Source: an archaeon
GTDB taxonomy: Archaea > Nanobdellota > Nanobdellia > Woesearchaeales > JBDRAZ01
Direction of reading: 5' to 3'
Length of the DNA stretch: 64,000 bases
Assembly: GCA_043823195.1 (NCBI GenBank)
Contig: JBDRAZ010000055.1
Span: forward strand, 3,780-67,779
Part shown: piece after piece, positions 21,416 to 64,000 of the stretch
How the letters are laid out: each line of letters begins with the position of its first letter
How positions within the stretch are numbered: the first letter of the stretch is position 1
Program-made: the position numbers and the translations under genes
The notes under the pieces: generated by a model
The model's input: only the letters and a program-made list of their open reading frames with translations
The model's database searches: none
Told to the model about the DNA's origin: nothing

Positions 21416-21426
21416 GGGATCACCTT

Positions 21427-28298: not shown

Positions 28299-28299
28299 A

Positions 28300-31113: not shown

Positions 31114-31122
31114 AGTATGTAA

Positions 31123-34000: not shown

Positions 34001-34004
34001 GAAT

Positions 34005-34589: not shown

Positions 34590-34713
34590 GTAGATCCCTC
34601 CAATCAGATACCCCCTTTTTAAATAATTATTTATAAAGATAATGGGCCCACCTTTATAAATACTTGGATTATTAAATGGTTTTTTCACAAAATATAGCTT
34701 ATAAATGGCAAAC

Positions 34714-34817: not shown

Positions 34818-34910
34818 AAACCCAGCCTATGAATTATAGTCCCTGGCACGGCATGCGCTATATTCCAAAGCGCAAGCCTTAAATACGGCTTAACAATCGT
34901 TAAGCCCGAC

Positions 34911-36816: not shown

Positions 36817-36837
36817 ATGCGGATAGTTTTGGAGGTG

Positions 36838-37152: not shown

Positions 37153-37569
37153 TATTTTGCACCTCGGATATCACTGTTGCCGGGTTCCTGCGACGAGAGA
37201 AGATTGGGAAGCCCCAAACGCAAGTAAGGAGCACCAAGAAATCACAAGAACCCAGCAAGCAGTGAGTTCTAATGAGTATTACAATTATTGGCAGTCTTGG
37301 ATAAAAGCGAGTGGTTTAGGCTCACATCTCTTGATACGAGTTCCTGACATTCACCCTTGCACATCTCTGCCATGAACGTAAGGAAGTACGGCAGTTTTTT
37401 TATATTTAACTATATTTATTCGGAATATCATTCCATATTTTTGAAGCTGTTTGAAATGTTTATTCCACCCGTCGTCTATATTTCGGAAAACCCGCATGAT
37501 TTTCAACGGATCGGATAGCGAACGGGGCTTCCGAAAAGATTATAAAGCGCCGGACCTGAAATCTGCAAT

Positions 37570-40179: not shown

Positions 40180-40220
40180 TTCTGCCTACCATATCGGATA
40201 GGGTTTTTATTTTTGAGACA

Positions 40221-40405
40221 TACCTACATTGTAAGTATTAATAAATTCCGAGTACCTACATTGTAAGTATGAACGGACAATAATACCTACAATGTAAGTA
40301 CAAAGGCCACCATATCCGCAAGATATTTATAGAAGTTCCTACATTGTAAGTAAAAACTCATTCTGTTCAGAAAAATTTATATATAGATACTTACATTGTA
40401 AGTAT
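40221..40405. promoter_or_regulatory. array of five 17-18-bp palindromic sites TAC(C/T)TACA(T/A)TGTAAGTA, putative TrmB-type operator cluster
   Basis: Copies start at 40221, 40253, 40284, 40337 and 40388 (spacings 32, 31, 53 and 51 bp) in an AT-rich intergenic region. The motif fits TACT-N8-(A/G)AGTA, like the haloarchaeal TrmB site TACT-N7-8-GAGTA. Confidence 0.55.
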
Positions 40406-40430
40406 TGCGCTGTGTTGGGGAACACACTGA

Positions 40431-40901
40431 CTAGGGGGTCAAAGGGGCCCCAAAATAGAGTACAGAGAGAAAAGAGGTGCAGGCGCTTCATCTAGTTCTC
40501 GGGCTGCTTCGCCTGAGTTTAATGCTGAACCCATTCCCTGCTCGATATTCTATGACAGGGGCGTTAGCGTCCTGGAGGCGATTTCTGAATATCTCAAGGA
40601 TGCCAAATCACTGAACTACCACCAGATAGCCGTTCTTCTGAACAGGGATGATCGGACCATATGGACCTGCTACTCAAGGGCCAAGAAGAAACGGGCCGGA
40701 ACCAGAACCAGGATATCCCAAGTCAGTGTCCCCAGCACCATATTGCGCGACAGGAACGTAAGCGTCCTGGAAGCGATTTCTGAATACCTCAAAGACTCGC
40801 TTGGGCTGTGCTATCATGAGATAGCTGTGCTTCTGAACAGGGATGATCGGACCATATGGACCTGCTACTCAAGGGCCAAGAAAAAGAGGGATGCCCAATG
40901 A
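40431..40901 (+). pseudogene. start-less 156-codon open frame encoding two copies of a sigma-70-region-4-like HTH module. Possible pseudogene or non-canonically initiated small regulator.
   Basis: The frame is open from the stop at 40428-40430 to the TGA at 40899-40901 with no ATG, GTG or TTG. It contains a ~135-bp imperfect direct repeat (40561-40690 and 40757-40895). Each copy encodes 'VSVLEAISEYLKD…YH(Q/E)IAVLLNRDDRTIWTCYSRAKKK'. The stop overlaps the ATG of the downstream protease gene (ATGA). Confidence 0.4.
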
Positions 40902-44863: not shown

Positions 44864-44876
44864 GAGAGGTGAAGAA

Positions 44877-47800
44877 ATGAACGTGCTAGGACATGAGAAG
44901 ATGAAGCGAATAGGTGCCCTGGCAGTCATCTTCATGCTTCACCTAGCGATAGCTCTGCCCTTTGTTGAGGCAGCAGACCCGGGCCATTCTGCGGCTGCGG
45001 TTGGCTCAGGAACATTCGAGTCCGGAGATTACGGGTTCCCGGGAAGCCTTAACATTACAGCAAGCCTCGGCGTCGGCTCAAGGTGGCCGGGCGGGACAGG
45101 AAACATAAATGCCAGCGGAAACATCTCGATAGGCGGACTGTTCTTTTCGCGGGGAGCCGGCAACAACTACTTTGCCGGGAACCTCGGCATAGGCACAGCT
45201 GCAGCCGCGTCCAAGCTTACCGTGATTGGCAACGGCAATATTACCGGGGGGCTGAATGTTACCGGAAGCATAAAGTCCATCTCAGGGATATTCTACGGAG
45301 ACGGATCAGGGCTGACAAACCTGCCGGCGGGATCTGTGCAGGATGTTTGGGTAAATGAATCAGGGGATACAATGACGGGGAACCTTATCATCAATGCCAA
45401 CCTGACCGTTGATTCGGGCGTGCTGTTTGTGGATAACTATGGCAACTATGTGGGAATCGGCACGACCAGGCCGGATGAGCTGTTTGAGCTGTCCAGCTCA
45501 AGTTTTAGCAACACCGACATGAAACTGACTGCAACTGCAAACGGCGCTGTGGGCGGCTCAAAAGTGGGCAATGTCATGTTTGAGGGGCAGGATACATCTG
45601 TTGGCACAGCTGTTTTGTCCCAGATCAGCGGCATATACGTCGAGGGCGCCTCAGGCGGGGACGGCTTTGCAATAGACGGCTCTTCCGGGGACGGCGGCGG
45701 CATTGCGTTCCTGACAAACAAGTACACCGGCTCATGGGACGGGCTGTCTGAAGCGATGAGGATCGACATGAACGGATATGTTGGAATAGGGACCGGCAGG
45801 CCGACACAGCTGCTGGATGTCCGCGGAAACATCTACACAACCGGCAACATTGCAGTGAACGGGGACCACATCACATCAGACGGAAACCTAGAGATCGAGG
45901 CAACCGGGTATGTAAGGATTGGCGATGACGGATCGCCGGGAAGCGCCAACGGGGATGATGACCTGTATGTGCGGGGAAGCATTGAGGCGGACGGAATCTT
46001 CTACGGAGACGGATCAGGGCTGACAAACCTGCCATCGGGTGCGGTGGCAGATGTGTGGGTGAATGAGTCAGGGGATACGATGACGGGGAACCTGGTATTC
46101 AGTTCGGCCAATCTGGACATGGGAGGGGGGATAATTAACCTGTCAGGAGGATACATATATGATTCAACCGGTGCGGCAACCGTGAACGATGACCTGAAGG
46201 TTAACGGCGGCGACATAACGGGTGCAAACTCAATAACAATGGATCTCGGAGAGGCAGACACCGATGCAGTTGTAATAACAACCGACAATGTTGGCGATTA
46301 TGATGATCCCGACCTGGTCATCAACTCAGGGGGGGAAGGGAACATCCGGCTTGGTGCAGCAGATGCGGATACCGGATTCCAGATTTATACTGACAGCGCC
46401 TCATTTCCGCATGCCCTGAAGGTAAGGGCTGAACTTAATCCGGATGCTGCAGACTATGAGATGTTTGTCGTAATGAGCTCGGGTGCTGCTGAAAGGTTTT
46501 CTGTCATTCATGGCGTAACAGGATACGGCAGCCAGTTCTATGACAGCCTGGCTGTCGGCGCAGCCGGGGACAACAGCCCAACCCTGACGCACATTGATTT
46601 TGGAACGGACAGCAGCGGAGACCTGTGGGTTGGCGATGATGCTGAGATCAATGGTGAAATGCACATTGACGGAACCGGAACAAGCACCATGGACGGAGAC
46701 TTGCAGGTTGCAGATGACAGCTGGATCGGGATCGGATCAGGTTCCGAGAGGGTTGTGTTTGATTCCGCAGGAGATATTGAGGTCCTGGGCGCAAACGTCG
46801 GGATCGGGACAACAGTGGCAAGTGCATATCTTCACATAGAGGACCTGTTATCATCAGGTGACTTGCTGGAGTTGACAACAGATAATAAGGATATTGACAT
46901 AAGAATAGGTGAGAACGATGACGGGGGATACGGATATTACTGGCGCTATGTGGGTACCCAGGGCGGGAATGATAATGAGCTGGAGCTGTGGACTGAAGGG
47001 CAGGCCGGCGCAGATGTCCAGGTGTATGAGATCGAACAGGACGGCCAGGTCAATTTCCTGCAGAATGTTGGCCTCGGAACAGACTCTCCTGCATACCGGC
47101 TGGATGTGGTTGATTCAATAAGGGCAGGAACCGGGTCGCCGGGAACGGCGGACATGAGCACAGGGGCCAATGCCGACCTATTTGTAACAGATGACCTGGA
47201 GGTTGACGGGATAATCTATGGGGACGGCTCTGGGCTGACTAACCTGCCGGCAGGAGCTGTTGCAGACATATGGATCAACGAGTCAGGAGATACGACAGGT
47301 GCGCTCACAAAGGACCTGAACATCGATGCAGGAACACTGGTTGTCGACTATGATGCGAATGCCGTCGGGATTGGAACAAGTGTTGCTACAGGTAAATTAA
47401 CAATTACGGGCCCGACCGCCAACACGGGTGTTGACTCCAACAGCGAGCTGGTTATTTATGGCGCACACCCGCAGATAAAATTAAGGGACACGGATGGTGT
47501 CGGCGAGAGTTGGTGGATCCATGCGAATGATGCCGGGCTTTATTTCCTGAAAAACGATGATGAAAGCTCAACGAGCACATGGGACAGCACCAGGCCATTT
47601 TTCATTGGGGAGTCAGGCAACGTCGGCATTGGGACTGCAGCCCCAAGTGCACTTCTGGATGTGCAGGGCGATGCTTATCTTACCGGAGACATCCTGATGA
47701 CTGACGGGAATTACATTGGAATATCGGGGAATGAGAGGATTGTGTTTGATGATGCCGGGGATATTGAGATCCTTGGGGCGAACGTCGGGATCGGGACGAC

Positions 47801-50800
47801 AGCTGCTGAAACCACATTGCATGTTGAGGGGAACATGACCATTGGAGGAACCGGACTGTTGTTTGAGGATTCAACCTCGGGAGGGGATGCATCGCTGACA
47901 AGAGTAATCCGCTTTAACAACAATGACGACCTGAGATATGATGACACCAATAACATCTACACATTTACAGGAGACGCAAAAACGTACCTGGTTATGGACG
48001 ACCAAAGCGTGGGAATCGCAAGGGCACCATCATATGGCCTGGATGTCATCAATTCCACTAGGATAGGCGACGGCACTCCGGGAACAGCCGACATGAAAGG
48101 GAAATCGGCCGCGGACCTATATGTAACTGATGACATTGAGTTCGACGGAGTCATCTATGGCGACGGCTCGGGGCTCACAAACCTGCCGGCTGGAGCGGTG
48201 CAGGACATATGGATCAACGAGTCTGGAGATACGACCGGCGCGCTGGTAAAGGACCTGAACATTGATGCGAATACGCTTTTGGTAGACTATGATGCGAACA
48301 GCGTCGGGATTGGGACTTCTGCTGCAAGCCAGGGACGGCTGCATGTATACCGCTCAGATACAATCGGCGGAGTAGGGGGCACACTTACAAATGCCGCACT
48401 TGCAATCTCAAACGGCGCTAATGACGGATTTTATATTGATGAGAACGAATTCCACCAAAGCGGCGACAATTTTAACCTCTATCTGGACACGGATGCGAAG
48501 AATTTCATTTTTTATGATAATGCCGGCCAGATTATGACTATCCAGGATGGGGGAAACGTGGGGATTGGAACTGCGACAGCCACGCAGAAGCTGGATGTGC
48601 AGGGGAACGCGTACATCACAGGAGACATCCTGATGACTGACGGGAATTACATTGGAATATCAGGGAATGAGAGGATTGTGTTTGATACTGCAGGGGATAT
48701 TGAGATCCTGGGGGCGAGTGTCGGAATAGGTACGACTGTGGCAACGGCCCCATTGGAGATTGCTGCAAGCGCTGATGAACAGCTCCTTATAGAGGGCGGC
48801 TGGGATGACACATTAACAAGCAACGCAAGAATGAACTTCAATGATGAGAACTTCGGAGTTGGCGCAGGCCAGTATGGAGGCGGAAGCTCTGAGGACGCCA
48901 TGGTTCTCTGGTCATACAAGGGCGCGGGCCGGGGCATCCTCTTTGCATCCACGGCTGCCGGGGACACCACAACATTCCAGTCAATGACCCATAACATGTT
49001 TATAGATGGCAATACCGGGGCGGTCGGCATCGCAAAAACAAGCCCGTCTTATACGCTCGATGTATCTAACTCGACAAGGATCGGCACGGGCACGCCAGGA
49101 ACAGTTGACATGAAAGGCGGACCGGATGCCGACCTATATGTAACAAATGACATCGAATTTGACGGCGTGATCTACGGGGACGGATCAGGCCTGGTAAATT
49201 TGCCGGCCGGAGCTGTGCAGGACATATGGATCAATGAGTCAGGAGATACGACGGGTGCGCTTACAAAGGACCTGAACATCGATGCGGATACATTCGTGAT
49301 AAGCTACGATGATAATCGCGTGGGGATTGGGACGGCTGCACCAACGCAGCTATTGGATGTGGAGGGCAACCTGGAGGTCGACGGGACGCTGTACTTTGAC
49401 GCAGCCAATGCGGACGGGACCATAGACATGGACGGGTACAGGATCGAGGATCTTGGAGACCCAGATTCTGGAGACGATGCAATGGACAGGGATTATGCTG
49501 ATTCCAGGTACGTTAACACCAATGGGGATACCATGACAGGCACCCTGACAACAAGGCAGGTCACTGTTCAGGACGGATATGTCATAAGGCATCAGGAGCA
49601 GGGAGGAAATGCCATCATGTTCGACTGCGACGGGACTGACTGCGATTCGAGGATAACAATCCATGACGGACAGGGCAACTTCAACATCAAGACCGGGGTT
49701 GATGACGGCGAACTTTTCATCGCGGGCGGGAGCCACGGCGCAGCCAAGTACACGCAATATGCTTCCGGCGCAGACGGGGCCCACATTTTCCAGGTGGATG
49801 ACCAGGGAACTGGCGGCGCAGCTGTAAGCTATGACGGTGGGCTGCGGTTTGATGATTCAGGACTATTTATCACGACAAGCCCCGGGGACCATTTTGCCAC
49901 CGGCGGAAACCAGATCGCTGACCTGTCCGGACACCTGTATACGGAGGCATACCTCTACCATGAGGGGGATACCAATACTTACGTGGGATTCCCGTCTAAT
50001 GATGAGATCAGGCTAAGAACCTCGGGGACAGACAGGATAACAATCGTATCCGGCGGAAATGTCGGTATCGGGACAGCAACCCCGTCACAGCTGCTGGATG
50101 TGCGCGGAAACATCTACACAACAGGCGATATCGCGGTGAATGGGGATGACATAACCTCAGACAGCAACCTGGACATCTCGGCGACGGGATACGTGAGGAT
50201 CGGGGACGACACAGGAACGCCCAACTATGCAAGCGGAGACGACGACCTGTATGTGTATGGCGATATCGAGGCTGACGGAGTATTCTACGGGGACGGCTCA
50301 GGGCTGATTAACCTGCCGGCGGGGGCGGTGCAGGACATATGGATCAATGAGTCAGGAGATACCACGGGTGCGCTGATCAAGGACCTGAACATCGATGCGA
50401 ACACTTTTGTGATAAGCTATGATGATGATCTGGTTGGCATTGGGACAGCGACTCCTGCCACAAAGCTTGATGTTGAAGGGGACATACAGTTGTCCGGACA
50501 ACTATTGGGTGATGTGCAAAGAGGCGGAGAGACCACGTATAGCTCTGTCGGCTACTGGACATTTGATGGGGATTATGACGACTATTCGGGTTACGGGCAG
50601 ACGGGCACAGCGAGAAATAACGCCGCCCGCACTTCAACAAATGCGCTTTTTGGACAATCGCTAAGCCTGGACGGAACCGATGATTCGATTGAGATCGCAG
50701 ATTCTGGATCAAGCCCCCTTGACGTAACAAATGCCTTCACTTTCGAGGCATGGGTACGTCCTGATCTGAACACTGATGAGATGATCCTGAATAAGGAGAC

Positions 50801-53800
50801 AAGTTATGAGTGGGTGATTCAGGGAAGCGGTACTGTCCAGTGGGCACTTTATACCAGCGGCACATGGGAGTGGCATGACACGGGGGTATCTGTCCCGACA
50901 CTAGAATGGACACACCTTGCGCTTACGTATGACGGGACGAATGTCAGGGTTTACAAGAACGGGGAACTCAAGAGCACTATCGCGGACCCGGACGGCGGCG
51001 CAATTGGCACCAATGACAACAACCTGTGCATCGGCACACGGGGCGGGGACGGCTGTGCCGGAACCCAGGACTACGACGGGCTTATTGACGAAGTGCGCAT
51101 CTACAACCGCGTCCTGACATCAGAGGAAATACGGGCCCACCACACCCAGAGTTACTGGGCAGAAGAGGGGAGCAACGTATATCTTACAAGTTCAGGAAAC
51201 GTCGGCATCGGGACTGCTACAGCAACACAGAAGCTGGATGTGCGGGGCAATGCCTATATTACGGGCGACGTCCTCATGACCGATGATAATTACATCGGAA
51301 TCTCTGGTGCTGAGAGATTAGTGTTTGATACGGCCGGGGACCTGGAGATACTGGGGGCAAACCTGGGAATCGGCACTTCAACTACCAATGCAAACCTGGA
51401 TATCTACGGCGGCGGGAGCGCCACAACACAGATCTTCATCCAGAACCCGGGCAATAACGGGGCAGGGAAGGGCGCAATAGATGTAAACAATGGGGACATA
51501 ATCGGCCTGAACAAGATTTTTTTTGACGACCTCGGAGAAGGCCTAGTGTGGGCAACTGCAAACACTGCTGCAACATCAAAGACACAGATATATTCAACAG
51601 ATGCAACACCCTCAAACATTTACCTTGACACAAATCTGAATTCAAACGCCGGGCACGTCATAATCCCAAGCGGGAATGTGGGAATCGGCACAGTAACGCC
51701 TGCGCAGAAGCTCGATGTGCGCGGAAACATATACACAACAGGCGACATCGCAGTAAACGGGGATGACATCACGTCGGACGGAAACCTGCTCATTGCCGCA
51801 ACAGGGTATGTAAGGGTCGGCGATACAGGAACGCCCACCTATGCAAGCGGAGACGACGACCTGTATGTGTATGGTGACATCGAGGCTGACGGAGTATTCT
51901 ACGGGGACGGCTCAGGGCTTGTAAATTTACCGGCGGGAGCGGTGGATGACATATGGATCAATGAGTCAGGAGATACGACAGGAGCCCTAACTAAGGACCT
52001 GAACATCGATGCGGATACATTCGTGATAAGCTATGATGATAATCTGGTAGGAATCGGGACGGCAACACCCAGTCAGAAGCTGGATGTTGTTGGGAATGTA
52101 GAAATCAATGGAAAATTTGGTGCCGCAACCGGAAGTAGTGATGGTCAAACGCGAGGTTTCTGGGTTTGGAACTTAGGGGATTCGAACCACGTCATTTATT
52201 CTGCAGCTTCAACAGGGACGTCTCCCGCGGGAGCAGGTGCAGCCGACGGGCTATGGGATGCAGGCCACAGAATGAGATTCAGAACTGCAACCACCCAGGG
52301 ATTCCTTTTTGAAAACAACGGAGAAACAGCATTGGTTGACATTGATTCTGATAACGGCAACCTGAGATCCATTGGCACTGCGTATTTCAGCGGTTCCGGA
52401 AATAACTATTTTGCGGGCAACATTGGCATCGGGACTGCGACACCCAGCCAGCTCCTTGATGTGCGCGGAAACATATACACAACAGGCGACATCGCGGTGA
52501 ACGGGGACGACATAACATCAGACAGCAACCTCGACATCTCGGCTACGGGATATGTGAGGATTGGTGATGATACGGGAACGCCCAACTATGCAAATGCTGA
52601 TGATGACCTGTATGTATACGGGGACATTGAGGCGGACGGAGTATTCTACGGGGACGGATCAGGGCTTGTAAATTTGCCGGCGGGGGCCGTGGACGACATC
52701 TGGATCAATGAGTCAGGAGATACGACCGGGGCACTAACTAAGGACCTGAACATCGATGCGGACACGCTTGTGATAAGCTATGATGATAATCTGGTAGGAA
52801 TCGGGACGGCTAGCCCCAGTGATGCATTACATGTACATAAAGACTCTGGTATCAGAATAAGCGACCCAAACAATGTTTACAGGGCTAATTTGTTGTTTGG
52901 GGCTGACAGTGCGTGGAACAGCGGCATCAGGGTATACGACAACGGAGATGCAGAGATGAGGATCTGGCATGAGAATGTGGACGGCCAGATTATCCTAGCA
53001 ACCGGCTATGCCGGAGATATGGCTACTACTATTCCGGGTGATGGCCTGTTCATACATGAGAACAAATTAGGAATAGGATACGGTGCCACAACAATCCCAG
53101 ACGGCGCACGTCTGGCTGTGAACGGCAACACAGGCATAGGAACAGCATCACCAACACAGCTGCTGGATGTCCGCGGAAACATATATGCTTCAGGAAATGT
53201 TGATGTGGACGGGACGCTGTACTTCGATGCTGCTAATGCAGACGGACAATTGGACATGGACGGGCAGACCATACAGATGAGAGGGGGAGTTATTGAGGAC
53301 GCAACTGATGAGGTAGATATAAATGATAACCTTGCGGTGGCCGGGCAGATTACGGCAAATTACTTTAAAGCCGGGCAGGGCAACTCTGCAACCATCGGGA
53401 GCGTCGGGTGGTACAGGATTGCCTCAAACGGCGGGAACAGGGCCAATGCCGAGTTTACATTGAGGGACTATATCAGCGGCGGCGGGCACTCCATGCTGAC
53501 ATTCAAGGTGGGCGTATCCTATGACTGGGAACCCGGCATGAGCTTTACCCTCCTTAACCACAATTACTATAGCACAGCAACCTTTACGAAAGTAAGGGTA
53601 TGGGAGAGCAGCTATACCTATGACCCCATGTATGTTGAGGTTTATGTCGCAAGGACAGGGAGCATGGATTACTCAATATATGATAACCTGCAAAGCAGCG
53701 GATGGAGCCCCATTGACTGGACAGCGGGTGCCACACCCACAGGAACTGGAGCATATACCGCGAGGGAGTTTGAGGTAAATAACCTATTTACCGTCGGGGA

Positions 53801-56800: not shown

Positions 56801-59800
56801 CCCGTCAATTGAGGAGGTCAACCCCGACGATAGCTATACCGTAGGCAACCATGTGTTCATGAGCGGCAATGTCGGCATAGGAAGCACAAGCCCAAGCCAG
56901 AGGCTGCATGTGCAGGGAAACATCTATGCTTCAGGAAACGTTGATGTGGACGGGACGCTGTATTTCGATGCAGGCAACGCAGACGGGACGCTGGACATGG
57001 ACAACCAGGTGATAACAAACATCGGCGACGCAGGGACAGATTTCACTTCTGGCGGGCACCTGACGCTGGCCGGAGACCTGGCGGTGAACGGCGATGACAT
57101 CACGTCAGACAGCAACCTGGACATCTCGGCGACGGGATATGTCAGAATCGGCGACACTGCGTCACCCGGAATAGCTAATGGTGACGACGACCTGTATGTG
57201 GAAGGAGATATCGAGGCTGACGGAGTCTTCTACGGGGACGGATCAGGGCTTGTAAATTTGCCCGCCGGGGCGGTACAGGACATATGGATCAACGAGTCAG
57301 GAGATACGACGGGTGCACTGACCAAGGACCTGAACATCGATGCAGATACATTCGTGATCAGCTATGATGATAATCGCGTGGGGATTGGGACGGCTGCACC
57401 AGGAGCACCCCTGCATGTACGGTTGGCCGCCGGCGGGGAAACTGTACGCATAGACGGCGGTACAAGCTACCCCAGATTGTACTTCGATTCGGGCCACGCA
57501 AGTGTTCTTGCGGTCATCAACCGGCAAACCGGAGACGAAGCCAAGAATCTGTACTTCGGTGAAACAGCTGACACAGGACAATACATCTTCCGGACCTCTG
57601 GTGCAACAACGTTTGAGGGCAACGTCGGCATCGGGACCGGGACCCCGACCCAGAAGCTGGATGTCCGCGGAAACATATATGCTTCAGGAAATGTTGATGT
57701 GGACGGGACGCTGTACTTCGATGCTGCTAATGCAGACGGACAATTGGACATGGACGGGCAGACCATACAGATGAGGGGAGGAGTTATTGAGGATGCAACA
57801 GACGAGGTGGACATCAATGACGATGTGGCGATTACTGGAGATATACTCCTGGCTGACGGGAATTACATCGGAATCTCGGGTGCGGAGAGGATCGTGTTTG
57901 ATGATGCCGGAGACCTGGAGATACTGGGGGCGAACGTCGGCATCGGGACAACTGTAGCAGGCGAAGCGCTGGATGTGCGCGGAAACATTAGGGCCTACGG
58001 CAGAATTGATGCGGGGCTTTACGAGGAGCCAATACCGGGGATAGGATACGGGAATACTGCAATGCCCAGCTCAGGCATCACCTATACGGATACAGGGGTC
58101 AACCTGCCATCCACGGCCTTCAGGGGGGTTGTATGGACCGGCAAGCACTACCTCTTTACAGACTATGTCAATGACAGGGTGTACTTTTATGACCAGAATT
58201 TCAACCAGATACAGAATAAGTATGGAAACACTTATGTAACGCTTCCGAGCGACCCAGTCAACCCGCACGGGGCTGCATGGGACGGAAGGTACCTCTGGAT
58301 GATTGAATACCCGGGAAGCTCCAACTTCCTCGTTGCATATGACCTGGACGGGAGCAGTGTTGTGAGGGTGGCACGCTGCGATGTTGCAGGAACAGCTGCC
58401 TACGGCGTAGGCTATGCCGAGGGACTGCTCTATTACCTACAGAGCGGAACATTGTACGGCTACCGCTGGAACGGCGGGGATTCGTGCACTCAGGTCATGA
58501 CCGCAACAGGATTTGGCACAATAAGTGCCCAGGCAATAACCTATGACGGGTCATATCTCTGGATTACGCAGAACTCCAATACCATCTACAAGGCAAACCT
58601 TGACGGCGACATCATATCAACGATTGCCTGGGGCAGCGGCCAGCCCCCGGAGATAACCGGGTGGACATGGAACGGCAAGAACATAGTGGCTTTCGAGTAC
58701 AGCGCAATGGATATAGACATAATCCACACAACACAGGAGATCATGCTGACGGGCGCCGTAGGGATCGGCACATCATCTGCGCTGGAACGGATTGATGCGC
58801 GCGATGGCCAATACATTTTCGATGACAGGCTATGCATAGGAAACTCAGGCACTGCCTGCAGCGATATAGGGAGCGGAACAGCGGGCGTCTGGTACGGCGA
58901 TGATGCCGCAGATGACTTTTTTGTCGGCATGCACACTGCAAACAGCAAGTTCGGCTGGTACAGGGGCGGCTGGCTGGGAACAATTGACGGCGGCGGCAAT
59001 ATGGGGATTGGCACAGAAACACCTGCGCAGAAGCTGGATGTCCGCGGAAACATCTACACAACAGGCGACATCGCAGTAAACGGGGATGACATCACGTCGG
59101 ACGGAAACCTGCTCATTGCCGCAACAGGTTATGTAAGGATCGGCGATACAGGAACGCCCAACTATGCAAATGGTGATGATGACCTGTATGTCTACGGGGA
59201 CATTGAAGCGGACGGAATAATCTATGGGGACGGGTCGGGCATATTCAACATTGATGCAGATTCAATCGAGGACATATGGATCAACGAGGCAGGGGATACT
59301 ACAGGGGCATTGACAGAGGACCTGAACATCGATGCGAACACATTCGTGATAAGCTATGATGATAATCTGGTAGGAATAGGGACGGCGACGCCGGGGTACA
59401 AGCTGGAGGTTGACGGCACATTTAATGCTGACGTTGGCAACGCTGCAGAAACCACCATATTTGAGCATAGCGGAGTTGGAACTCCGGTTCCGTTTAACAT
59501 TCGCAAAACAGGTTATTCTGGCAGTTCCCAGTCCTTTGGTGTTTTACATCTCGACATGGGCCACAGCGTGGCAGGGGGCGGCTCAAATCTTCATTTCAGG
59601 CTGAAAGACAGCGCCGGAAACTATGATGAATATGGCGGGATCGGAGCCTACATAGTGGATTCGACCACTACAAGCGAGGATGGAAACTTGGCGTTTTATA
59701 CAACCGCAGCCGGAACCACTAGGCAACAAAGGATGACCATCCAGTACGGTGGAAATGTCGGCATAGGCACGGCGGCGCCGGGGGCGAAGCTACACGTGGC

Positions 59801-62800
59801 CGGCGACATCCTTGCCACCGGTCTTATTGCAGGGTCATCTGCAATTGCTGATGACAATGCCAACCTGGAAATCTACTGGCCCCTTGACGGCGACACAAAG
59901 GATTACAGCGGACACGGCTATGACGGCTCATTGTCAGGAGCCACATTCACATCATCAGGCAAGGTCGGCGGGGCGTATGATTTCGATGCTGCCAATGAGA
60001 AGATAGTGTATAATCCCGGGGACTATGCCGTGGCAGACTACACAATAGAGTTCTGGATGAAGGCAGACACCATCCCGGGAGGATGGCGCGACATGGTTAG
60101 CATCAGCGGGGAAGCCGGCAGGGTACATCTGGAATCCGGCGACAATAGCATTACCTGGTACGGGGTGGACAGCTTGGGAAGCATTGATTCAGGTGTAATC
60201 CCTACAGTGGGCCAGTGGTATCATGTTGCAGTCACAAAGCAGGGCACTGCTGCAAAGATTTATGTGAACGGGGCTGAGAAAAACAGCGCGACCCGCGGCG
60301 CGACCACCACATTCACCTACCTCCAGGTTGGATGTGACGCCGAGATCTTTGACGGCATCCTTGACGAGGTAAAGTACTACAGGCGCACGCTATCGGCACC
60401 CGAAATTTACCAGCATTATGCCGCCGGCGTAAGGCTGCTTGAAGGCGATGCCTATGTCAGAAAAGGCGGCGACACCATGTACGGCGACCTGCGCGTACTG
60501 CAGGGAGGAAATGTCGGCATAGGGACTGCCGTACCCACGCAGCTTCTCGACGTCGAAGGAGATATGACGCTGGAAGGAGACGTACTCATGACAGACGGCG
60601 ATTACATAGGAATCTCGGGCGCGGAGAGGATCGTGTTTGATGATGCCGGAGACCTGGAGATACTGGGTGCCAATGTCGGCATCGGAACCACTGCGGCCGG
60701 CAGCACACTTGATGTCAGAGGGGATACAGTCATAGGAGACGGGACCGCATACGGAGACACAAGGTTCGCAATTGCCGGGACGAACGGCAACAATGACGGC
60801 ACCTTCCTTACTGTCAAGAGGGACGGATCAACAAACCCCGTATACAGCATACTGCCCTGGGATACACAGGTACTTCTAAGTGCGGGCACATATTACAGCA
60901 ACTCCGCCTGGGTGCATAATTCAGATGACACGAATAGCCAGATTTTTGTTCTAGATCCTGGTGCAGGTACGAGGTGGTATGCATCAAGCGATAGCTCAGG
61001 CAGCTGGAATGTAGCAAGCGATGAGACATTATGGGATGACGCAGCCAACTGGAAGAACCTTGTGCAGTCAACGCAGTCAGGGACGTCCTATTTCACAGGA
61101 GGCAACGTCGGCATAGGGACGGCGGCGCCGGGCGGAAAATTGGATGTCCGCGGTGCCCGGGTCCTGCTGGGGTCAAACACTTTCGCAAAAGCGGCTGCAG
61201 GCCAGGGTGACATTATGCTCGACAACGGCGGAACAGACACACCAGGGATACACTTCTATACGGCAGCAAACGACAACTTTGGCATTGATGTTGCCAGCGG
61301 GAAACTGCGATTTGTTTACAAGTTGGATGAATCCGGCGGAGTTTCAAGAATGGAGATGGATTCTGCAGGGGCTGTAACTGCCACAAGCTTTAGCGGCGAC
61401 GGATCGGGACTGACAGGCGTTTCCGCAGGACGGCTGCTGACATCAGACACCCGCGCAACAAACCCGGCGCCGCAAACGTACAGCATGGGAATCATCTCTG
61501 ACTTCAAGGGCAATGCGGCAGACGGCCTATCAGATGGGGGCTCATACCATGGCGTATTGATCTTCAGGCAGTGGTCCAGCGGTAGCGACTGGAGCGGCGG
61601 CGGTGTGCGGCAGGTCGGGTTTACTGATAACCATAACCTGTGGATTCGCGGCGCGAACGCAGATACCACCTGGAGCTCATGGAACAGGATCCTGGACACA
61701 GACAGCACAGTGAAGACATCAGGGGTAATGCAGATCGACGGCACAGGCAACAGCTACGTGCTGGGGAATGTCGGGGTTGGGACGGCGAGCCCGAGCGATT
61801 CCCTGCATGTTTACAGAAACTATGACTCCGCGGGCAGCACAACAACAAATGCCGCCACTATTTTTATAGACGGTGCGGCAGGAAAAGATGCCTGGCTGGG
61901 GTGGGGAACCGCCGGAACAGCAAAAATGGTTGCAGGCATTGATGATGGCGGAAATAGTGTTAATTTCTGGGGCTATAATGGTGCCTGGAATCCTGGACTG
62001 GCAGTAACAACCGGCGGCTATGTCGGGGTCGGCACGACGACACCGGACAGCAAGATGCACGTGTATGGGGCAGGCGGAACAAACCCAACTTCCATTACAG
62101 GCCTCTATGGCAACAGCATTGTCCTGGAAAATACCGGCGGCGGAACAACAGGCAGCACGGTCGGCATTTTCGGTGCACAGTCAAATAATCCCGGAATCGT
62201 GTCAGGTATTGGCTTCGGGAGAGAGGACAGCGGCAACTGGGGCTCTACTATCCGGTTCTATACGCACCCGACAGCAACAAGCAACATCCAGGATATTACA
62301 GAACGCATGAGAATAACAGCCGACGGCGGTGTCGGCATCGGGACGGCGGGGCCCGCAACCAAGCTGGATGTCTATGGCGGCATTAGGCAGGGAGGTATAA
62401 CACCTATCGGGGTTGGCGGCGAGAGCGGAGGGTCTGCGATAGACAATGACTACACGTTCGGGTTTCAGGAGGCCGGCTCATGGGTATATCCCTACCCTGA
62501 CCTGATCTTGGGGTATCACACCGGCATTAAGATCGGCGGCTACTGGAATTATAACGGAGTGCGCTTTTATAATGACCACCCCTTGCGCGCGGGCGCAACA
62601 GAACTGTTCTCTGTCGGCAATCTTGACCAGAATGTCCGTGTAACTAACGACCTCTATGTTGGCGGAAACGTGGGAATTGGGACGGGGGCGCCGGCAAACA
62701 AGCTGGATGTCTGGGCGGGGGCCGGCCAGGCGAGGGTGTACAGCTCAAGCGATGCCCCGCTGAAGATCCAGGGCTCCAACACATGGTCGGGCATATCTTT

Positions 62801-64000
62801 TCAGGACAGTGCCGCATCTGACGAAATTTGGTATTGGGGCGGGACAGACACCTTTGCCATAGGCGGCGGGGGCTCAACAGGGCCTGCCGGCAAGAAGCTG
62901 CACGTCGACGGGGCAATGACCATCGGCTCACACTATGACACAACATCCATGCCGACAAATGGCCTCAGGGTTGAGGGCGCGATAATGGCAGGCGACGAGA
63001 TAATGGATTCGGGTTCAACAGACAACCTTGTTGACAACGGCGACTTTGAGCAGGGGGAAATCGGGTGGGGTGGGATAACTGGAATATCATCTACACAGTA
63101 CTATGCAGGAGGCAAGTCTGCGCTTTTCAGCGGCTCACTGACAATGCTTTCTGATGACTACATTCCCGTTGACCCCGAATATGATACGCTTCATCTCGAG
63201 GGGTGGTTCAAGAAAACAAGCGGGGGAGGTATTTTGTACTTCGGCTACATCGCATACGACCAGAACAAGGCTGTAATCACAACATCCCCGTGCGGAACAT
63301 ACTGCTACTTCGCTGCATCAGGGTATGGGCTTCCAATAGACGGCAACTGGCATAAGTTCCAGTCAACAACGACAGGGGAATGCACATCCTTCAACTGTTT
63401 CCCCGTGGGAACAAGGTACGTGCGCGTATTGGGCCTCATAAACTACGCTGGTTCAGGTGACACATATGTTGACCACGTACGACTCTACAAAGTGAGCAAC
63501 GGGCCGCTGGTCGTGGGTGACTACGCAAGCACAACAAACAGAATAGACTATAAAGAGACATCCAGAATATACACAACTAGTGCCGGTGATCTGATACTGT
63601 ATCCGAAAAGCGACGGACAGGGCGAAATAGGCATCGGTACAGCCAGCCCCACTGATGCATTGCATATTCACAGAGATTCCGGACTCAGGATAAGCGATCC
63701 TGCTAATCCATATAGAGCCAACATATTGTTTGGGGCTGATACCGTGTGGAACAGCGGTATCCGGGTATACGACAATGGCGATGCAGAGATGAGAATCTGG
63801 CATGAGAATGCCAACGGCCGGATTATTCTGGCCACCGGGTATGCGGGGGATATGGCAACCACAATGCCCAGCGACGGGCTGTTCATAGACCAGAACAACC
63901 TGGGAATCGGGGTCAATCCTGTCACTAACCTGCAGGTTGCAAACAACGTGGCAACTGATGCGCTTGACACCTATCCCGAGTACCAGATCATGCTGTATGA
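44877..64000 (+). CDS. giant secreted repeat protein, 3'-partial (at least 6,374 codons within the window). It has tail-fibre/beta-helix-like modules, two LamG domains, two CBM4/9-like domains and a beta-propeller-like region.
   Basis: The ATG at 44877 is preceded by GAGAGGTGA and lies 14 nt after the protease stop. The signal peptide is 'MKRIGALAVIFMLHLAIALPFVEAADP'. I read the frame (position mod 3 = 0) codon by codon through to position 63999 without meeting a stop. The ORF track lists no plus-strand ORF in this frame after 44863, consistent with one uninterrupted frame running off the window. Confidence 0.85.
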   Translation, partial: MNVLGHEKMKRIGALAVIFMLHLAIALPFVEAADPGHSAAAVGSGTFESGDYGFPGSLNITASLGVGSRWPGGTGNINASGNISIGGLFFSRGAGNNYFAGNLGIGTAAAASKLTVIGNGNITGGLNVTGSIKSISGIFYGDGSGLTNLPAGSVQDVWVNESGDTMTGNLIINANLTVDSGVLFVDNYGNYVGIGTTRPDELFELSSSSFSNTDMKLTATANGAVGGSKVGNVMFEGQDTSVGTAVLSQISGIYVEGASGGDGFAIDGSSGDGGGIAFLTNKYTGSWDGLSEAMRIDMNGYVGIGTGRPTQLLDVRGNIYTTGNIAVNGDHITSDGNLEIEATGYVRIGDDGSPGSANGDDDLYVRGSIEADGIFYGDGSGLTNLPSGAVADVWVNESGDTMTGNLVFSSANLDMGGGIINLSGGYIYDSTGAATVNDDLKVNGGDITGANSITMDLGEADTDAVVITTDNVGDYDDPDLVINSGGEGNIRLGAADADTGFQIYTDSASFPHALKVRAELNPDAADYEMFVVMSSGAAERFSVIHGVTGYGSQFYDSLAVGAAGDNSPTLTHIDFGTDSSGDLWVGDDAEINGEMHIDGTGTSTMDGDLQVADDSWIGIGSGSERVVFDSAGDIEVLGANVGIGTTVASAYLHIEDLLSSGDLLELTTDNKDIDIRIGENDDGGYGYYWRYVGTQGGNDNELELWTEGQAGADVQVYEIEQDGQVNFLQNVGLGTDSPAYRLDVVDSIRAGTGSPGTADMSTGANADLFVTDDLEVDGIIYGDGSGLTNLPAGAVADIWINESGDTTGALTKDLNIDAGTLVVDYDANAVGIGTSVATGKLTITGPTANTGVDSNSELVIYGAHPQIKLRDTDGVGESWWIHANDAGLYFLKNDDESSTSTWDSTRPFFIGESGNVGIGTAAPSALLDVQGDAYLTGDILMTDGNYIGISGNERIVFDDAGDIEILGANVGIGTTAAETTLHVEGNMTIGGTGLLFEDSTSGGDASLTRVIRFNNNDDLRYDDTNNIYTFTGDAKTYLVMDDQSVGIARAPSYGLDVINSTRIGDGTPGTADMKGKSAADLYVTDDIEFDGVIYGDGSGLTNLPAGAVQDIWINESGDTTGALVKDLNIDANTLLVDYDANSVGIGTSAASQGRLHVYRSDTIGGVGGTLTNAALAISNGANDGFYIDENEFHQSGDNFNLYLDTDAKNFIFYDNAGQIMTIQDGGNVGIGTATATQKLDVQGNAYITGDILMTDGNYIGISGNERIVFDTAGDIEILGASVGIGTTVATAPLEIAASADEQLLIEGGWDDTLTSNARMNFNDENFGVGAGQYGGGSSEDAMVLWSYKGAGRGILFASTAAGDTTTFQSMTHNMFIDGNTGAVGIAKTSPSYTLDVSNSTRIGTGTPGTVDMKGGPDADLYVTNDIEFDGVIYGDGSGLVNLPAGAVQDIWINESGDTTGALTKDLNIDADTFVISYDDNRVGIGTAAPTQLLDVEGNLEVDGTLYFDAANADGTIDMDGYRIEDLGDPDSGDDAMDRDYADSRYVNTNGDTMTGTLTTRQVTVQDGYVIRHQEQGGNAIMFDCDGTDCDSRITIHDGQGNFNIKTGVDDGELFIAGGSHGAAKYTQYASGADGAHIFQVDDQGTGGAAVSYDGGLRFDDSGLFITTSPGDHFATGGNQIADLSGHLYTEAYLYHEGDTNTYVGFPSNDEIRLRTSGTDRITIVSGGNVGIGTATPSQLLDVRGNIYTTGDIAVNGDDITSDSNLDISATGYVRIGDDTGTPNYASGDDDLYVYGDIEADGVFYGDGSGLINLPAGAVQDIWINESGDTTGALIKDLNIDANTFVISYDDDLVGIGTATPATKLDVEGDIQLSGQLLGDVQRGGETTYSSVGYWTFDGDYDDYSGYGQTGTARNNAARTSTNALFGQSLSLDGTDDSIEIADSGSSPLDVTNAFTFEAWVRPDLNTDEMILNKETSYEWVIQGSGTVQWALYTSGTWEWHDTGVSVPTLEWTHLALTYDGTNVRVYKNGELKSTIADPDGGAIGTNDNNLCIGTRGGDGCAGTQDYDGLIDEVRIYNRVLTSEEIRAHHTQSYWAEEGSNVYLTSSGNVGIGTATATQKLDVRGNAYITGDVLMTDDNYIGISGAERLVFDTAGDLEILGANLGIGTSTTNANLDIYGGGSATTQIFIQNPGNNGAGKGAIDVNNGDIIGLNKIFFDDLGEGLVWATANTAATSKTQIYSTDATPSNIYLDTNLNSNAGHVIIPSGNVGIGTVTPAQKLDVRGNIYTTGDIAVNGDDITSDGNLLIAATGYVRVGDTGTPTYASGDDDLYVYGDIEADGVFYGDGSGLVNLPAGAVDDIWINESGDTTGALTKDLNIDADTFVISYDDNLVGIGTATPSQKLDVVGNVEINGKFGAATGSSDGQTRGFWVWNLGDSNHVIYSAASTGTSPAGAGAADGLWDAGHRMRFRTATTQGFLFENNGETALVDIDSDNGNLRSIGTAYFSGSGNNYFAGNIGIGTATPSQLLDVRGNIYTTGDIAVNGDDITSDSNLDISATGYVRIGDDTGTPNYANADDDLYVYGDIEADGVFYGDGSGLVNLPAGAVDDIWINESGDTTGALTKDLNIDADTLVISYDDNLVGIGTASPSDALHVHKDSGIRISDPNNVYRANLLFGADSAWNSGIRVYDNGDAEMRIWHENVDGQIILATGYAGDMATTIPGDGLFIHENKLGIGYGATTIPDGARLAVNGNTGIGTASPTQLLDVRGNIYASGNVDVDGTLYFDAANADGQLDMDGQTIQMRGGVIEDATDEVDINDNLAVAGQITANYFKAGQGNSATIGSVGWYRIASNGGNRANAEFTLRDYISGGGHSMLTFKVGVSYDWEPGMSFTLLNHNYYSTATFTKVRVWESSYTYDPMYVEVYVARTGSMDYSIYDNLQSSGWSPIDWTAGATPTGTGAYTAREFEVNNLFTVGDYDDRFTVARGGNVGIGSTSPSQKLHVQGNIYASGNVDVDGTLYFDAGNADGTLDMDNQVITNIGDAGTDFTSGGHLTLAGDLAVNGDDITSDSNLDISATGYVRIGDDTGTPTYANGDDDLYVYGDIEADGVFYGDGSGLVNLPAGAVDDIWINESGDTTGALTKDLNIDADTFVISYDDNRVGIGTAAPGASLDVYGTATDHYFRLGSGAAGANSWDFVTSGTGSTFVPAGSFWLSKAGTGNVLTVDTSGNVGIGTNTPTQLLDVEGDMTLEGDILMTDGDYIGISGNERIVFDGAGDLEILGASVGIGTTVASDTLDVRGDAVIGDGTTYGDTRFAIAGTNGNNDGTFLTVKRDGTTNPVYSMLPWDSQIYLSAGIYYSNGAWVHNSDDTNNLLFVLDPGAGTAWYASNNGAGSWNVASNEALWDAGANWKNLVQSTQSGVSYFTGGNVGIGTATPSQLLDVRGNIYTTGDIAVNGDDITSDGNLLIAATGYVRIGDTGTPNYANADDDLYVYGDIEADGIFYGDGSGLVNLPAGAVQDIWINESGDTTGALTKDLNIDADTLVVDYDANSVGIGTATPGYKLEVAGTAKSGAAAVSAANQPALRIAAANTAATGRITAIQQLTTEGDTRIFADYDPYVEYGMYARNSDDSIHFTAGTSTNGLESWTEYNTAGAARTAYSKMKVSLGNGQVTIGGNVGIGTATATQKLDVRGNIYASGNVDVDGTLYFDAANADGTLDMDGQTIQMRGGVIEDATDEVDINDDVAITGNVLMADDKYIGISGAERIVFDTAGDIEVQGANLGIGTATASQALYVVGQHIYTTGTLVDDGNGKNLIPNWQMESDTYWADPPEQTAIADFEGVTHYAHQATESGTGCYQWAQTGSIPADASKTYKFTVWIKSTGTDMNNYFGFYIFDSAGTRITGSWDNPYFKTSESDPNSWIKWTAYLGPSYAGGATGCDTSKTNADDWCMSSSTAYIRMRFGSCYADGSGTSYSYFIYPSIEEVNPDDSYTVGNHVFMSGNVGIGSTSPSQRLHVQGNIYASGNVDVDGTLYFDAGNADGTLDMDNQVITNIGDAGTDFTSGGHLTLAGDLAVNGDDITSDSNLDISATGYVRIGDTASPGIANGDDDLYVEGDIEADGVFYGDGSGLVNLPAGAVQDIWINESGDTTGALTKDLNIDADTFVISYDDNRVGIGTAAPGAPLHVRLAAGGETVRIDGGTSYPRLYFDSGHASVLAVINRQTGDEAKNLYFGETADTGQYIFRTSGATTFEGNVGIGTGTPTQKLDVRGNIYASGNVDVDGTLYFDAANADGQLDMDGQTIQMRGGVIEDATDEVDINDDVAITGDILLADGNYIGISGAERIVFDDAGDLEILGANVGIGTTVAGEALDVRGNIRAYGRIDAGLYEEPIPGIGYGNTAMPSSGITYTDTGVNLPSTAFRGVVWTGKHYLFTDYVNDRVYFYDQNFNQIQNKYGNTYVTLPSDPVNPHGAAWDGRYLWMIEYPGSSNFLVAYDLDGSSVVRVARCDVAGTAAYGVGYAEGLLYYLQSGTLYGYRWNGGDSCTQVMTATGFGTISAQAITYDGSYLWITQNSNTIYKANLDGDIISTIAWGSGQPPEITGWTWNGKNIVAFEYSAMDIDIIHTTQEIMLTGAVGIGTSSALERIDARDGQYIFDDRLCIGNSGTACSDIGSGTAGVWYGDDAADDFFVGMHTANSKFGWYRGGWLGTIDGGGNMGIGTETPAQKLDVRGNIYTTGDIAVNGDDITSDGNLLIAATGYVRIGDTGTPNYANGDDDLYVYGDIEADGIIYGDGSGIFNIDADSIEDIWINEAGDTTGALTEDLNIDANTFVISYDDNLVGIGTATPGYKLEVDGTFNADVGNAAETTIFEHSGVGTPVPFNIRKTGYSGSSQSFGVLHLDMGHSVAGGGSNLHFRLKDSAGNYDEYGGIGAYIVDSTTTSEDGNLAFYTTAAGTTRQQRMTIQYGGNVGIGTAAPGAKLHVAGDILATGLIAGSSAIADDNANLEIYWPLDGDTKDYSGHGYDGSLSGATFTSSGKVGGAYDFDAANEKIVYNPGDYAVADYTIEFWMKADTIPGGWRDMVSISGEAGRVHLESGDNSITWYGVDSLGSIDSGVIPTVGQWYHVAVTKQGTAAKIYVNGAEKNSATRGATTTFTYLQVGCDAEIFDGILDEVKYYRRTLSAPEIYQHYAAGVRLLEGDAYVRKGGDTMYGDLRVLQGGNVGIGTAVPTQLLDVEGDMTLEGDVLMTDGDYIGISGAERIVFDDAGDLEILGANVGIGTTAAGSTLDVRGDTVIGDGTAYGDTRFAIAGTNGNNDGTFLTVKRDGSTNPVYSILPWDTQVLLSAGTYYSNSAWVHNSDDTNSQIFVLDPGAGTRWYASSDSSGSWNVASDETLWDDAANWKNLVQSTQSGTSYFTGGNVGIGTAAPGGKLDVRGARVLLGSNTFAKAAAGQGDIMLDNGGTDTPGIHFYTAANDNFGIDVASGKLRFVYKLDESGGVSRMEMDSAGAVTATSFSGDGSGLTGVSAGRLLTSDTRATNPAPQTYSMGIISDFKGNAADGLSDGGSYHGVLIFRQWSSGSDWSGGGVRQVGFTDNHNLWIRGANADTTWSSWNRILDTDSTVKTSGVMQIDGTGNSYVLGNVGVGTASPSDSLHVYRNYDSAGSTTTNAATIFIDGAAGKDAWLGWGTAGTAKMVAGIDDGGNSVNFWGYNGAWNPGLAVTTGGYVGVGTTTPDSKMHVYGAGGTNPTSITGLYGNSIVLENTGGGTTGSTVGIFGAQSNNPGIVSGIGFGREDSGNWGSTIRFYTHPTATSNIQDITERMRITADGGVGIGTAGPATKLDVYGGIRQGGITPIGVGGESGGSAIDNDYTFGFQEAGSWVYPYPDLILGYHTGIKIGGYWNYNGVRFYNDHPLRAGATELFSVGNLDQNVRVTNDLYVGGNVGIGTGAPANKLDVWAGAGQARVYSSSDAPLKIQGSNTWSGISFQDSAASDEIWYWGGTDTFAIGGGGSTGPAGKKLHVDGAMTIGSHYDTTSMPTNGLRVEGAIMAGDEIMDSGSTDNLVDNGDFEQGEIGWGGITGISSTQYYAGGKSALFSGSLTMLSDDYIPVDPEYDTLHLEGWFKKTSGGGILYFGYIAYDQNKAVITTSPCGTYCYFAASGYGLPIDGNWHKFQSTTTGECTSFNCFPVGTRYVRVLGLINYAGSGDTYVDHVRLYKVSNGPLVVGDYASTTNRIDYKETSRIYTTSAGDLILYPKSDGQGEIGIGTASPTDALHIHRDSGLRISDPANPYRANILFGADTVWNSGIRVYDNGDAEMRIWHENANGRIILATGYAGDMATTMPSDGLFIDQNNLGIGVNPVTNLQVANNVATDALDTYPEYQIMLY

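Follow-up and report, generated by a model that had tools for sequence, protein, structure and literature searches.

The window analysed here is a stretch of 64,000 nt from an archaeal contig (JBDRAZ010000055.1, assembly GCA_043823195.1), and its right-hand end is taken up by one giant open reading frame (ORF) on the plus strand (44877-64000), which comprises at least 6,374 codons and is still open at the window edge. The contig is part of a metagenome-assembled genome (MAG) and is 68,929 nt long, with at most ~4.9 kb outside the window. A preliminary reading of the letters alone (hereafter the sequence-only reading) had proposed that the ORF encodes a giant, secreted and modular protein that might serve in attachment. 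The C-terminus lies beyond the window edge, and all statements on domains made below cover aa 1-6374.

The giant open reading frame and its repeats

Counts of stop codons in each frame confirm the uninterrupted ORF of at least 19.1 kb. Read from the ATG at 44877, the frame has 0 stops over 6,374 codons, through base 63998, compared with 167-390 stops in each of the remaining five frames of the same 19.1 kb, none of which stays open for more than 181 codons. Given the base composition, a run of 6,374 codons without a stop would arise with a probability of ~1e-131, and the giant ORF is real. The frame opens just 18 nt before the ATG, after an in-frame stop whose last base is 44858, and a Shine-Dalgarno-like GAGGTGA, read from the sequence (44866-44872, plus strand), stands 4 nt before the start codon. 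Two ORFs in alternative frames within the giant gene, at 56065-56523 (plus strand, 152 aa) and 58586-59053 (minus strand, 155 aa), are most likely spurious.

The product begins with a predicted Sec-type signal peptide (aa 1-32; 44877-44972, plus strand), as the sequence-only reading had it. By inspection, the N-terminus MNVLGHEKMKR-IGALAVIFMLHLAIALPF-VEA/ADPGH fits the n-h-c layout of such peptides, with predicted cleavage at VEA/ADPGH, and the A-x-DPGH junction recurs in an archaeal homologue (P0001, see below). A Kyte-Doolittle scan found no second hydrophobic segment anywhere in the giant protein, which therefore carries a single export signal and none internally. The product is acidic, with an isoelectric point (pI) of 4.05, and is rich in Gly (14.8 %), Asp (10.2 %), Thr and Ser and poor in Cys (0.3 %, 17 Cys), whereas the cytoplasmic proteins of the window have pI values of 5.8-9.4. 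The latter values imply that the organism is not a salt-in halophile, and hence the idea of a halophile, prompted by the acidic product, was dropped. The G+C content at third codon positions (GC3) is 0.58 in the giant gene, compared with 0.60-0.62 in housekeeping or host genes.

Most of the protein is filled by ~48 segments of ~50-130 aa that are bounded by GNVGIGTxxPxxKLxV, with 36 strict and 49 relaxed [VL]GIGT motifs at a median spacing of 104 aa. Self-BLAST separates the segments into at least three kinds (A, B and C), and larger inserts, roughly nine in total, interrupt some of them. The core GDGSG[LI] is present in 13 segments, and 12 of these are complete 'A units' of ~100-180 aa, which start at aa 101, 300, 730, 1020, 1373, 1727, 2266, 2514, 2986, 3424, 3997 and 4707 and together span 45177-59393 on the plus strand (self-BLAST, alignment and DNA repeat families), with the shorter, recurrent B and C units between them. 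The A units follow the pattern GNVGIGT..KLDV..GDDDLYV.GDIEADG..YGDGSGL.NLPAGAV.DIWINESGDTTGAL..VGIGT, and their consensus is GNVGIGT..P.Q.LDVRGNIYTTGDIAVNGDDITSD.NL.I.ATGYVRIGDTGTP.YANGDDDLYVYGDIEADGVFYGDGSGLVNLPAGAVQDIWINESGDTTGALTKDLNIDADTFVISYDDN.VGIGTA.P. The sequence-only reading had seen at least 12 recurring modules; as a picture of the whole protein this was too simple, given the many short segments of several kinds and the inserts among them. The giant protein also contains two copies of a fibre unit 'RISDPNNVYRANLLFGAD..IRVYDNGDAEMRIWHEN' (63639-63998 and 52809-53126, 77 % DNA identity), and a counterpart that is 46 % identical lies in a Flavobacteriales MAG (L001 10001-10528, JANQJC010000075.1).

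Repeat copies are 60-92 % identical in DNA sequence. Pairwise comparison of the A-unit cores gives a ratio of nonsynonymous to synonymous substitution rates (dN/dS) of 0.04-0.13 at a dS of 0.4-1.1. The ORF is under purifying selection, and these values indicate that the copies are old and kept by selection at the protein level, and do not represent duplicates that are recent or collapsed. No more than two exact repeats are longer than 100 nt, one of 140 nt (55184-55323 and 59033-59172) and one of 120 nt (53162-53281 and 57656-57775), and these islands of identity may be gene-conversion tracts or assembly artefacts. Every exact repeat of at least 40 nt is in phase, which means that the repeat count is not secure from short-read assembly and that an in-frame mis-join could have occurred.

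Fibre homology and lectin-type inserts

Apart from a LamG match, the only relatives of the giant protein found by sequence search of the PDB are the Bdellovibrio MAT fibres 8OND (Bd2133), 8OL4/8ONF and 8OML, and the comparison was made against PDB entries, which cover fibre tips only. A segment of aa 727-981 (47055-47819, plus strand) is colinear with both beta-helix subdomains of the Bd2133 tip (PDB 8OND; phmmer, E 7e-10), and its first part, aa 727-968, is colinear with tip residues 20-262 (E 1e-11). This shorter alignment spans an A unit, the next 86-aa segment and then a GNVGIGT loop, which together correspond to two trimeric beta-helix regions in the crystal. The PHROG tail-fibre and tail-protein families 9942 (E 5e-37), 3269 (E 5e-36) and 18345 (E 2e-29) each match several stretches, and IMG/VR holds 15 loci with A-unit-like segments. 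The homology to the Bd2133 beta-helix and to the tail-fibre PHROGs agrees with the tail-fibre or beta-helix type of module anticipated earlier. In the MAT structures, the GNxGIGT-type motif corresponds to the V-G-G/N-pi-x-x-P-x-x-x-L 'capping loops' of an intertwined trimeric beta-helix that S74 tailspikes share (PMC10769870). Trimerisation is invariant along the MAT fibres, which are displayed on the predator surface and are involved in prey handling (PMC10769870).

Other family matches to the giant protein say little. The Chlorovirus glycoprotein repeat of Pfam (PF06598) is seen weakly, with whole-protein scores of 38.4 and 35.5 bits at a cut-off of 27; the score comes from the GNVGIGT motif, no single repeat passes alone, and the model describes a 34-aa loop motif only and is silent on function. 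Spurious matches to Pept_tRNA_hydro / TIGR00447 and to TafC were dismissed, as they arise from the repeat or LamG region. No catalytic or toxin domain was found in the visible giant protein with Pfam and NCBIfam.

Of the larger inserts, roughly nine in number, five are lectin-type, namely two LamG domains, two CBM-like domains and one propeller. The two LamG / concanavalin-A-like domains named by the sequence-only reading are recovered at aa 1932-2085 (50670-51131, plus strand; Pfam Laminin_G_3, PF13385, E 1e-30, 107.3 bits) and at about aa 5050-5177 (60024-60407, plus strand; Laminin_G_3, E 1e-20, 74.8 bits). Both matches span nearly the whole model at a cut-off of 27.6 bits, and the first domain also matches PDB 5HON.

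The first CBM4/16/22-like beta-sandwich (aa 3810-3985; 56304-56831, plus strand) is predicted from an AlphaFold2 model with a predicted local distance difference test score (pLDDT) of 80-92. Foldseek aligns this model with CBM4-2, CBM16 and CBM22 structures in the PDB (E 8e-7 to 1e-4, template modelling (TM) score 0.52-0.63) and with phage tail or structural proteins in BFVD (E 5e-12), and no close relatives of the domain were found in IMG/VR. Its homologues, at 57-69 % identity, formed the input alignment for the model, and P0013 alone among them carries PF02018, with five tandem copies. The second CBM-like beta-sandwich, at about aa 6039-6185 (62991-63431, plus strand), would be a distant paralogue of the first, the sole support being an hhalign comparison with the family of copy 1 (probability 75 %, E 2.7e-5, 140 columns). 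Of the earlier proposal of two CBM4/9-like domains, the likeness therefore holds by predicted fold for copy 1 and by profile alignment for copy 2, but neither gives a CBM_4_9 (PF02018) sequence-profile match in Pfam at E<=5.

The stretch described as beta-propeller-like (aa 4397-4619; 58065-58733, plus strand) is predicted to be a five-bladed beta-propeller of ~20 strands (AlphaFold2, pLDDT 85-95), for which the best whole-domain match in Foldseek is the five-bladed glutaminyl cyclase 3MBR (TM 0.70), with 2IWA and 3NOK at 0.63. It has no Pfam match at E<=5, and without such a sequence-family match no enzymatic identity is implied. Propeller homologues, at 33-54 % identity, lie within fibre proteins of 400-1,100 aa, and homologues of single domains in general belong to fibre proteins 350-1,100 aa long, of which some end in Peptidase_S74 (PF13884). 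Pfam at E<=5 gave nothing usable on ten insert segments, and four inserts (>200 aa), at about aa 430-617, 1495-1728, 2825-2985 and 5425-5632, have no assignment.

Neighbouring genes and relatives

The window is chromosomal and archaeal. Its genes include an MCM with an archaeal winged helix, TBP, an archaeal PheRS, shikimate-pathway enzymes and trp genes, and the neighbour proteins are NCBI MFH1849579-MFH1849614, on a contig labelled 'archaeon'. Scans of the window for tRNA genes and Rfam families gave no matches. The gene next to the giant ORF encodes a membrane-anchored double subtilase of family S8 (40856-44863, plus strand; Pfam, NCBIfam, motif and transmembrane scan) and ends 13 nt upstream of it. 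In NCBI this protein is MFH1849614.1 (P0038), with an annotated start 14 codons later. It consists of a cytoplasmic N-terminus, a transmembrane segment (aa 101-124), a region that is conserved in a related locus, L005, described below, two S8 domains and a conserved C-terminal region. Both S8 domains are complete, with intact Asp/His/Ser triads, and are 52 % identical to each other. Before the subtilase gene lies a tandem small helix-turn-helix (HTH) gene segment that is sigma-70 region-4-like, with ~180 nt duplicated (40533-40901, plus strand; tblastn, Pfam). This segment and the subtilase gene separate the giant ORF from a gene for a HerA/FtsK/Zot-like P-loop ATPase with a LAGLIDADG intein at aa 62-492 (37570-40179, plus strand; Pfam, NCBIfam).

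The locus has a counterpart in an archaeal relative, locus L005 (JGI 3300032737, Ga0335112_10668191; GC lower, at 37.6 %), which is syntenic with window 27312-46000. Protein identity between the two loci is 64 % for MCM, 63 % for MoxR, 43 % for DUF58, 52 % for VWA/BatA and 72 % for HTH, and the 90-aa HTH protein of L005, in the same position, is 72 % and 67 % identical to the two window copies (tblastn). The MCM gene of L005 contains an intein, and the window MCM has none. After the HTH gene, L005 has a gene for a membrane protein of 837 aa, followed by at least two fibre genes that stand apart from one another; these encode 1,044 aa (P0001) and at least 1,421 aa, and both products begin with a signal peptide. 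P0001 aligns with aa 1-420 of the giant protein, and the second fibre gene carries a LamG domain. The simplest history is that ~1,000-aa fibre genes, still separate in this related archaeon, probably fused and underwent internal duplication to give the giant gene. The N- and C-terminal parts of the subtilase protein match the 837-aa membrane protein of L005, which is without protease domains, and hence the conserved role of this partner is probably not proteolysis. A reasonable guess is that it may dock or assemble the fibre. Sequence similarity of the subtilase protein to the fibre, which a co-assembly idea would call for, was looked for and none was found.

Among further homologues, one (P0018) comes from the sample that also yielded L005 and runs colinear with the giant protein at aa 3412-4266, another (P0023) adjoins genes for the ribosomal proteins L7Ae, S28e and L24e and thus has an archaeal context, and a third (P0016) is located in a bacterial type IV pilus locus. 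A profile built from the 12 A units matches 13,967 cluster representatives at E<=1e-3, of which 68 reach E<=1e-30. Among the best 150 matches are eight giants of at least 5,000 aa (5,098, 5,466, 5,875, 6,147, 6,149, 6,605, 7,448 and 7,831 aa), and the two named ones, WKZ27142.1 (Paceibacterota, 6,605 aa) and NTU46041.1 (Roizmanbacteria, 7,448 aa), are both from candidate phyla radiation (CPR) bacteria. The giant protein is thus not unique, and judged by sequence comparison the same repeat builds giants of 5,000-7,800 aa in CPR bacteria and metagenomes. These CPR and metagenomic proteins of 5,098-7,831 aa carry 31-55 GIGT-type motifs each and are of the same size class as the archaeal one, but share only repeat-driven identity of 24-30 % with it, and none is orthologous. 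Several of them lack the GDGSGL A-unit, and the N-termini of both named CPR giants and of at least two unnamed giants are charged and non-signal-peptide, unlike that of the archaeal giant. An exhaustive HMMER search gave no orthologue of the giant protein, only repeat-driven relatives, and a word-indexed search with its first 700 aa gave 12 weak matches, the best at 31 % identity.

The 3' end of the gene was sought by look-ups and by scans for overlapping contigs, and its stop codon was not found. Exact look-ups of the upstream subtilase, both as the window ORF and in its NCBI version, matched no indexed contig. Genome contigs scanned with the last 433 aa gave as sole match the Flavobacteriales MAG, at 46 % identity over one 150-aa unit, and the sole match among metagenome contigs scanned for an extension was a 2.8-kb fragment.

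A probable archaeal mosaic fibre and its alternatives

We consider it probable, at roughly two chances in three (about 0.65), that the giant gene encodes a Sec-exported, extremely long extracellular mosaic fibre of the tail-fibre or MAT-adhesin type. Three chains would intertwine into one fibre. In MAT structures a 135-aa beta-helix measures 60 Å, a 370-aa tip 150 Å and a 922-aa protein ~550 Å (PMC10769870); at 0.4-0.6 Å per residue, as scaled from these, a mature chain with 6,342 visible residues would form a fibre of ~0.25-0.4 micrometres. Globular domains along the shaft could bind glycans on other cells or particulate polysaccharide and so provide multivalent attachment. The fibre may be held on the cell by the unseen C-terminus or via the co-encoded membrane-anchored partner, and this partner, having gained two subtilase domains in this organism, may also process the fibre. 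The candidacy as an attachment structure put forward by the sequence-only reading is in this way supported by fibre homology and lectin-type inserts, with adhesion itself being what we infer.

The closest known system is the MAT family of Bdellovibrio bacteriovorus (Bd2133 8OND, Bd3182, Bd1334; Caulton et al. 2024, PMC10769870). The giant protein shares with it the signal peptide, the GNxGIGTxxPxxKLxV capping loop that starts the shaft beta-helix subdomains, with direct homology over ~240 aa (E 1e-11), the mosaic use of unrelated adhesive domains, and a kinship with phage S74 tail fibres. MAT proteins also have a beta-rich domain, ~130 aa long and conserved, directly after the signal peptide. 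However, MAT proteins are bacterial and ~1,000 aa long, and their adhesive domain or S74 chaperone is single and at the C-terminal tip, whereas the giant protein is archaeal, at least 6,374 aa long and has at least five lectin-type domains inside the shaft. Pfam found no S74 domain (PF13884) in its visible aa 1-6374. As it departs from the MAT fibres in size and in the tip-only position of adhesive domains, and as the C-terminus is out of view, we regard it as a variant of the MAT-type fibre and not as a member of the family. Phage tail fibres and tailspikes with a Peptidase_S74 chaperone have the repeat family in common with the giant protein (the three PHROGs above), and the CBM-like and propeller domains have single-domain homologues in 400-1,100-aa proteins ending in PF13884. 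They differ from the giant protein, which carries a Sec signal peptide, lies among chromosomal housekeeping genes, is six- to ten-fold longer and has no S74 domain in view; tail fibres are encoded among virion structural genes and assemble in the cytoplasm, whereas here there is an export signal and the scanned neighbours are housekeeping genes.

The size recalls other archaeal giants. The largest protein of a cultivated archaeon, at 9,409 aa, is from nanohaloarchaea (PMC10266531), and giant proteins are far fewer in archaea than in bacteria, those of >10,000 aa being mainly from Asgard archaea (bioRxiv 10.1101/2023.11.21.568195); both reports agree with the rarity of such sizes in archaea noted earlier. 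SPEARE (SVXNc_0300, 9,409 aa) and the Haloquadratum halomucin are likewise archaeal, Sec-exported, giant and of pI ~4, and are predicted to mediate cell-cell contact; the group is described as Ig-like/fibronectin-like arrays with a VirB4/TraG-like ATPase domain (PMC10266531). Pfam and NCBIfam detected neither Ig-like/FN3 arrays nor a VirB4/TraG-like ATPase in aa 1-6374, the HerA/FtsK-like ATPase encoded upstream being a different protein, and there is no evidence of homology between this group and the giant protein. No archaeal members of the fibre family are mentioned in the MAT paper (PMC10769870) or were found in literature searches. Most likely, the giant protein represents, in an archaeon and at unusual size, a kind of fibre whose characterised examples so far come only from a predatory bacterium and phages.

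Several observations weigh against a MAT-like fibre. In MAT and tail fibres, the adhesive domains are borne at the tip and not repeatedly within the shaft. An anchor, tip or S74 chaperone is not in view because the C-terminus is outside the window. Monomer AlphaFold2 models of shaft parts have a pLDDT of <50, a result that an obligate trimer would be expected to give but that does not count as evidence for one. The giant protein has 21 N-x-S/T sequons, compared with 63.7 +/- 6.9 expected from shuffles, a three-fold depletion that is unusual for an archaeal surface protein. The upstream subtilase protein has 48 sequons against 15.8 +/- 3.5 expected from shuffles, and the 837-aa protein and the P0001 fibre of L005 are likewise three-fold enriched; the giant protein and the subtilase protein thus show opposite sequon biases. 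Finally, neither protein collection includes the giant protein, whereas its neighbours are there; it may have been flagged as partial or pseudo in the source record.

This absence also bears on the possibility that the ORF is an assembly artefact, in which a chimeric or collapsed join conceals a gene of different repeat number or order, or several tandem fibre genes. In its favour, the sequence comes from a 68,929-nt contig of a MAG, the fibre genes at the equivalent position in L005 are separate, and because the 140-nt and 120-nt repeats, like all of at least 40 nt, are in phase, a mis-join would leave the frame open. Nevertheless, we regard such an artefact as improbable, given that just these two exact repeats exceed 100 nt and the copies otherwise differ at 8-40 % of bases (dS 0.4-1.1), and that 19 kb pass without an internal signal peptide, hydrophobic segment or stop, whereas each L005 fibre gene has a signal peptide. 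A giant gene would be left even if an in-phase mis-join of 3.8 kb or 4.5 kb had occurred. A non-adhesive coat is also unlikely. In that case the protein would form a protective or structural layer (halomucin-like, a sheath or a matrix) and its lectin-type domains would cross-link the cell's own glycans, in line with the very acidic, Gly-, Asp-, Thr- and Ser-rich and Cys-poor composition, a size in the class of halomucin and the nanohaloarchaeal giants (PMC10266531) and the lack of a catalytic or toxin domain among the families found. However, the organism is not a salt-in halophile, as judged from its cytoplasmic proteins (pI 5.8-9.4), the mosaic of differing lectin folds resembles receptor-binding repertoires, and the homology is to surface-displayed adhesins shown to act in prey handling (PMC10769870).

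The tail-fibre PHROG matches, the IMG/VR contigs with A-unit-like segments, the resemblance of the CBM-like domain to phage tail proteins, and the intein-bearing HerA/FtsK/Zot-like ATPase and duplicated HTH genes just upstream could also point to a virus, in which case the protein would belong to an integrated archaeal virus or mobile element, as its tail fibre or receptor-binding protein, and would not be a cellular surface structure. We hold this to be very unlikely, given that tail fibres assemble in the cytoplasm whereas the giant protein has a Sec signal peptide, that it is several times larger than known tail fibres, and that the scanned upstream ORFs include no capsid, portal or terminase family and are housekeeping genes. 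The locus is also syntenic with a related archaeal chromosome fragment, and its GC3 is host-like.

A more ambitious version of the extracellular mosaic fibre, which we offer tentatively and consider doubtful, is that HTH regulator, membrane-anchored partner and fibre gene or genes form a conserved archaeal cell-contact apparatus. Here it would possess one fused, MAT-like trimeric fibre of ~0.3 micrometres or more, with which an archaeon that is biosynthetically competent would capture other cells or particles, as a counterpart of the Bdellovibrio prey-recognition fibres, and the avoidance of sequons would be a functional need of an intertwined fibre.

Trimeric mosaic fibres are the main known means of target-surface recognition for phages and, according to work from 2024, for a predatory bacterium. 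If the archaeal fibre is what we propose, this recognition machinery would extend to the third domain of life, with the building block multiplied in one protein of >6,000 residues, combined with several lectin folds and placed in a conserved chromosomal cassette. It would then offer a definite candidate for the means by which uncultured archaea adhere to partners or particles, and a natural example of ~1,000-aa fibre genes fusing into giant genes. The size is not unprecedented and the repeat family is abundant in metagenomes; hence its value would lie in being a well-defined, testable case, not a new principle.

Elsewhere in the window, a run of aromatic amino-acid biosynthesis genes on the minus strand (7896-27131) encodes DAHP synthase, AroB, AroD/E, AroA and AroK, a chorismate synthase-mutase fusion, prephenate dehydratase and prephenate dehydrogenase, as well as trp genes, those checked being trpE (anthranilate synthase component I) and the gene for a bifunctional TrpC/TrpF. 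This run implies that the organism differs from the CPR bacteria with similar giants in not being a symbiont with a minimal genome. The ORF at 17190-17777 (plus strand) has matches to bacterial-type sigma-70 region 2 and region 4 / ECF-like families, on a contig that is archaeal.

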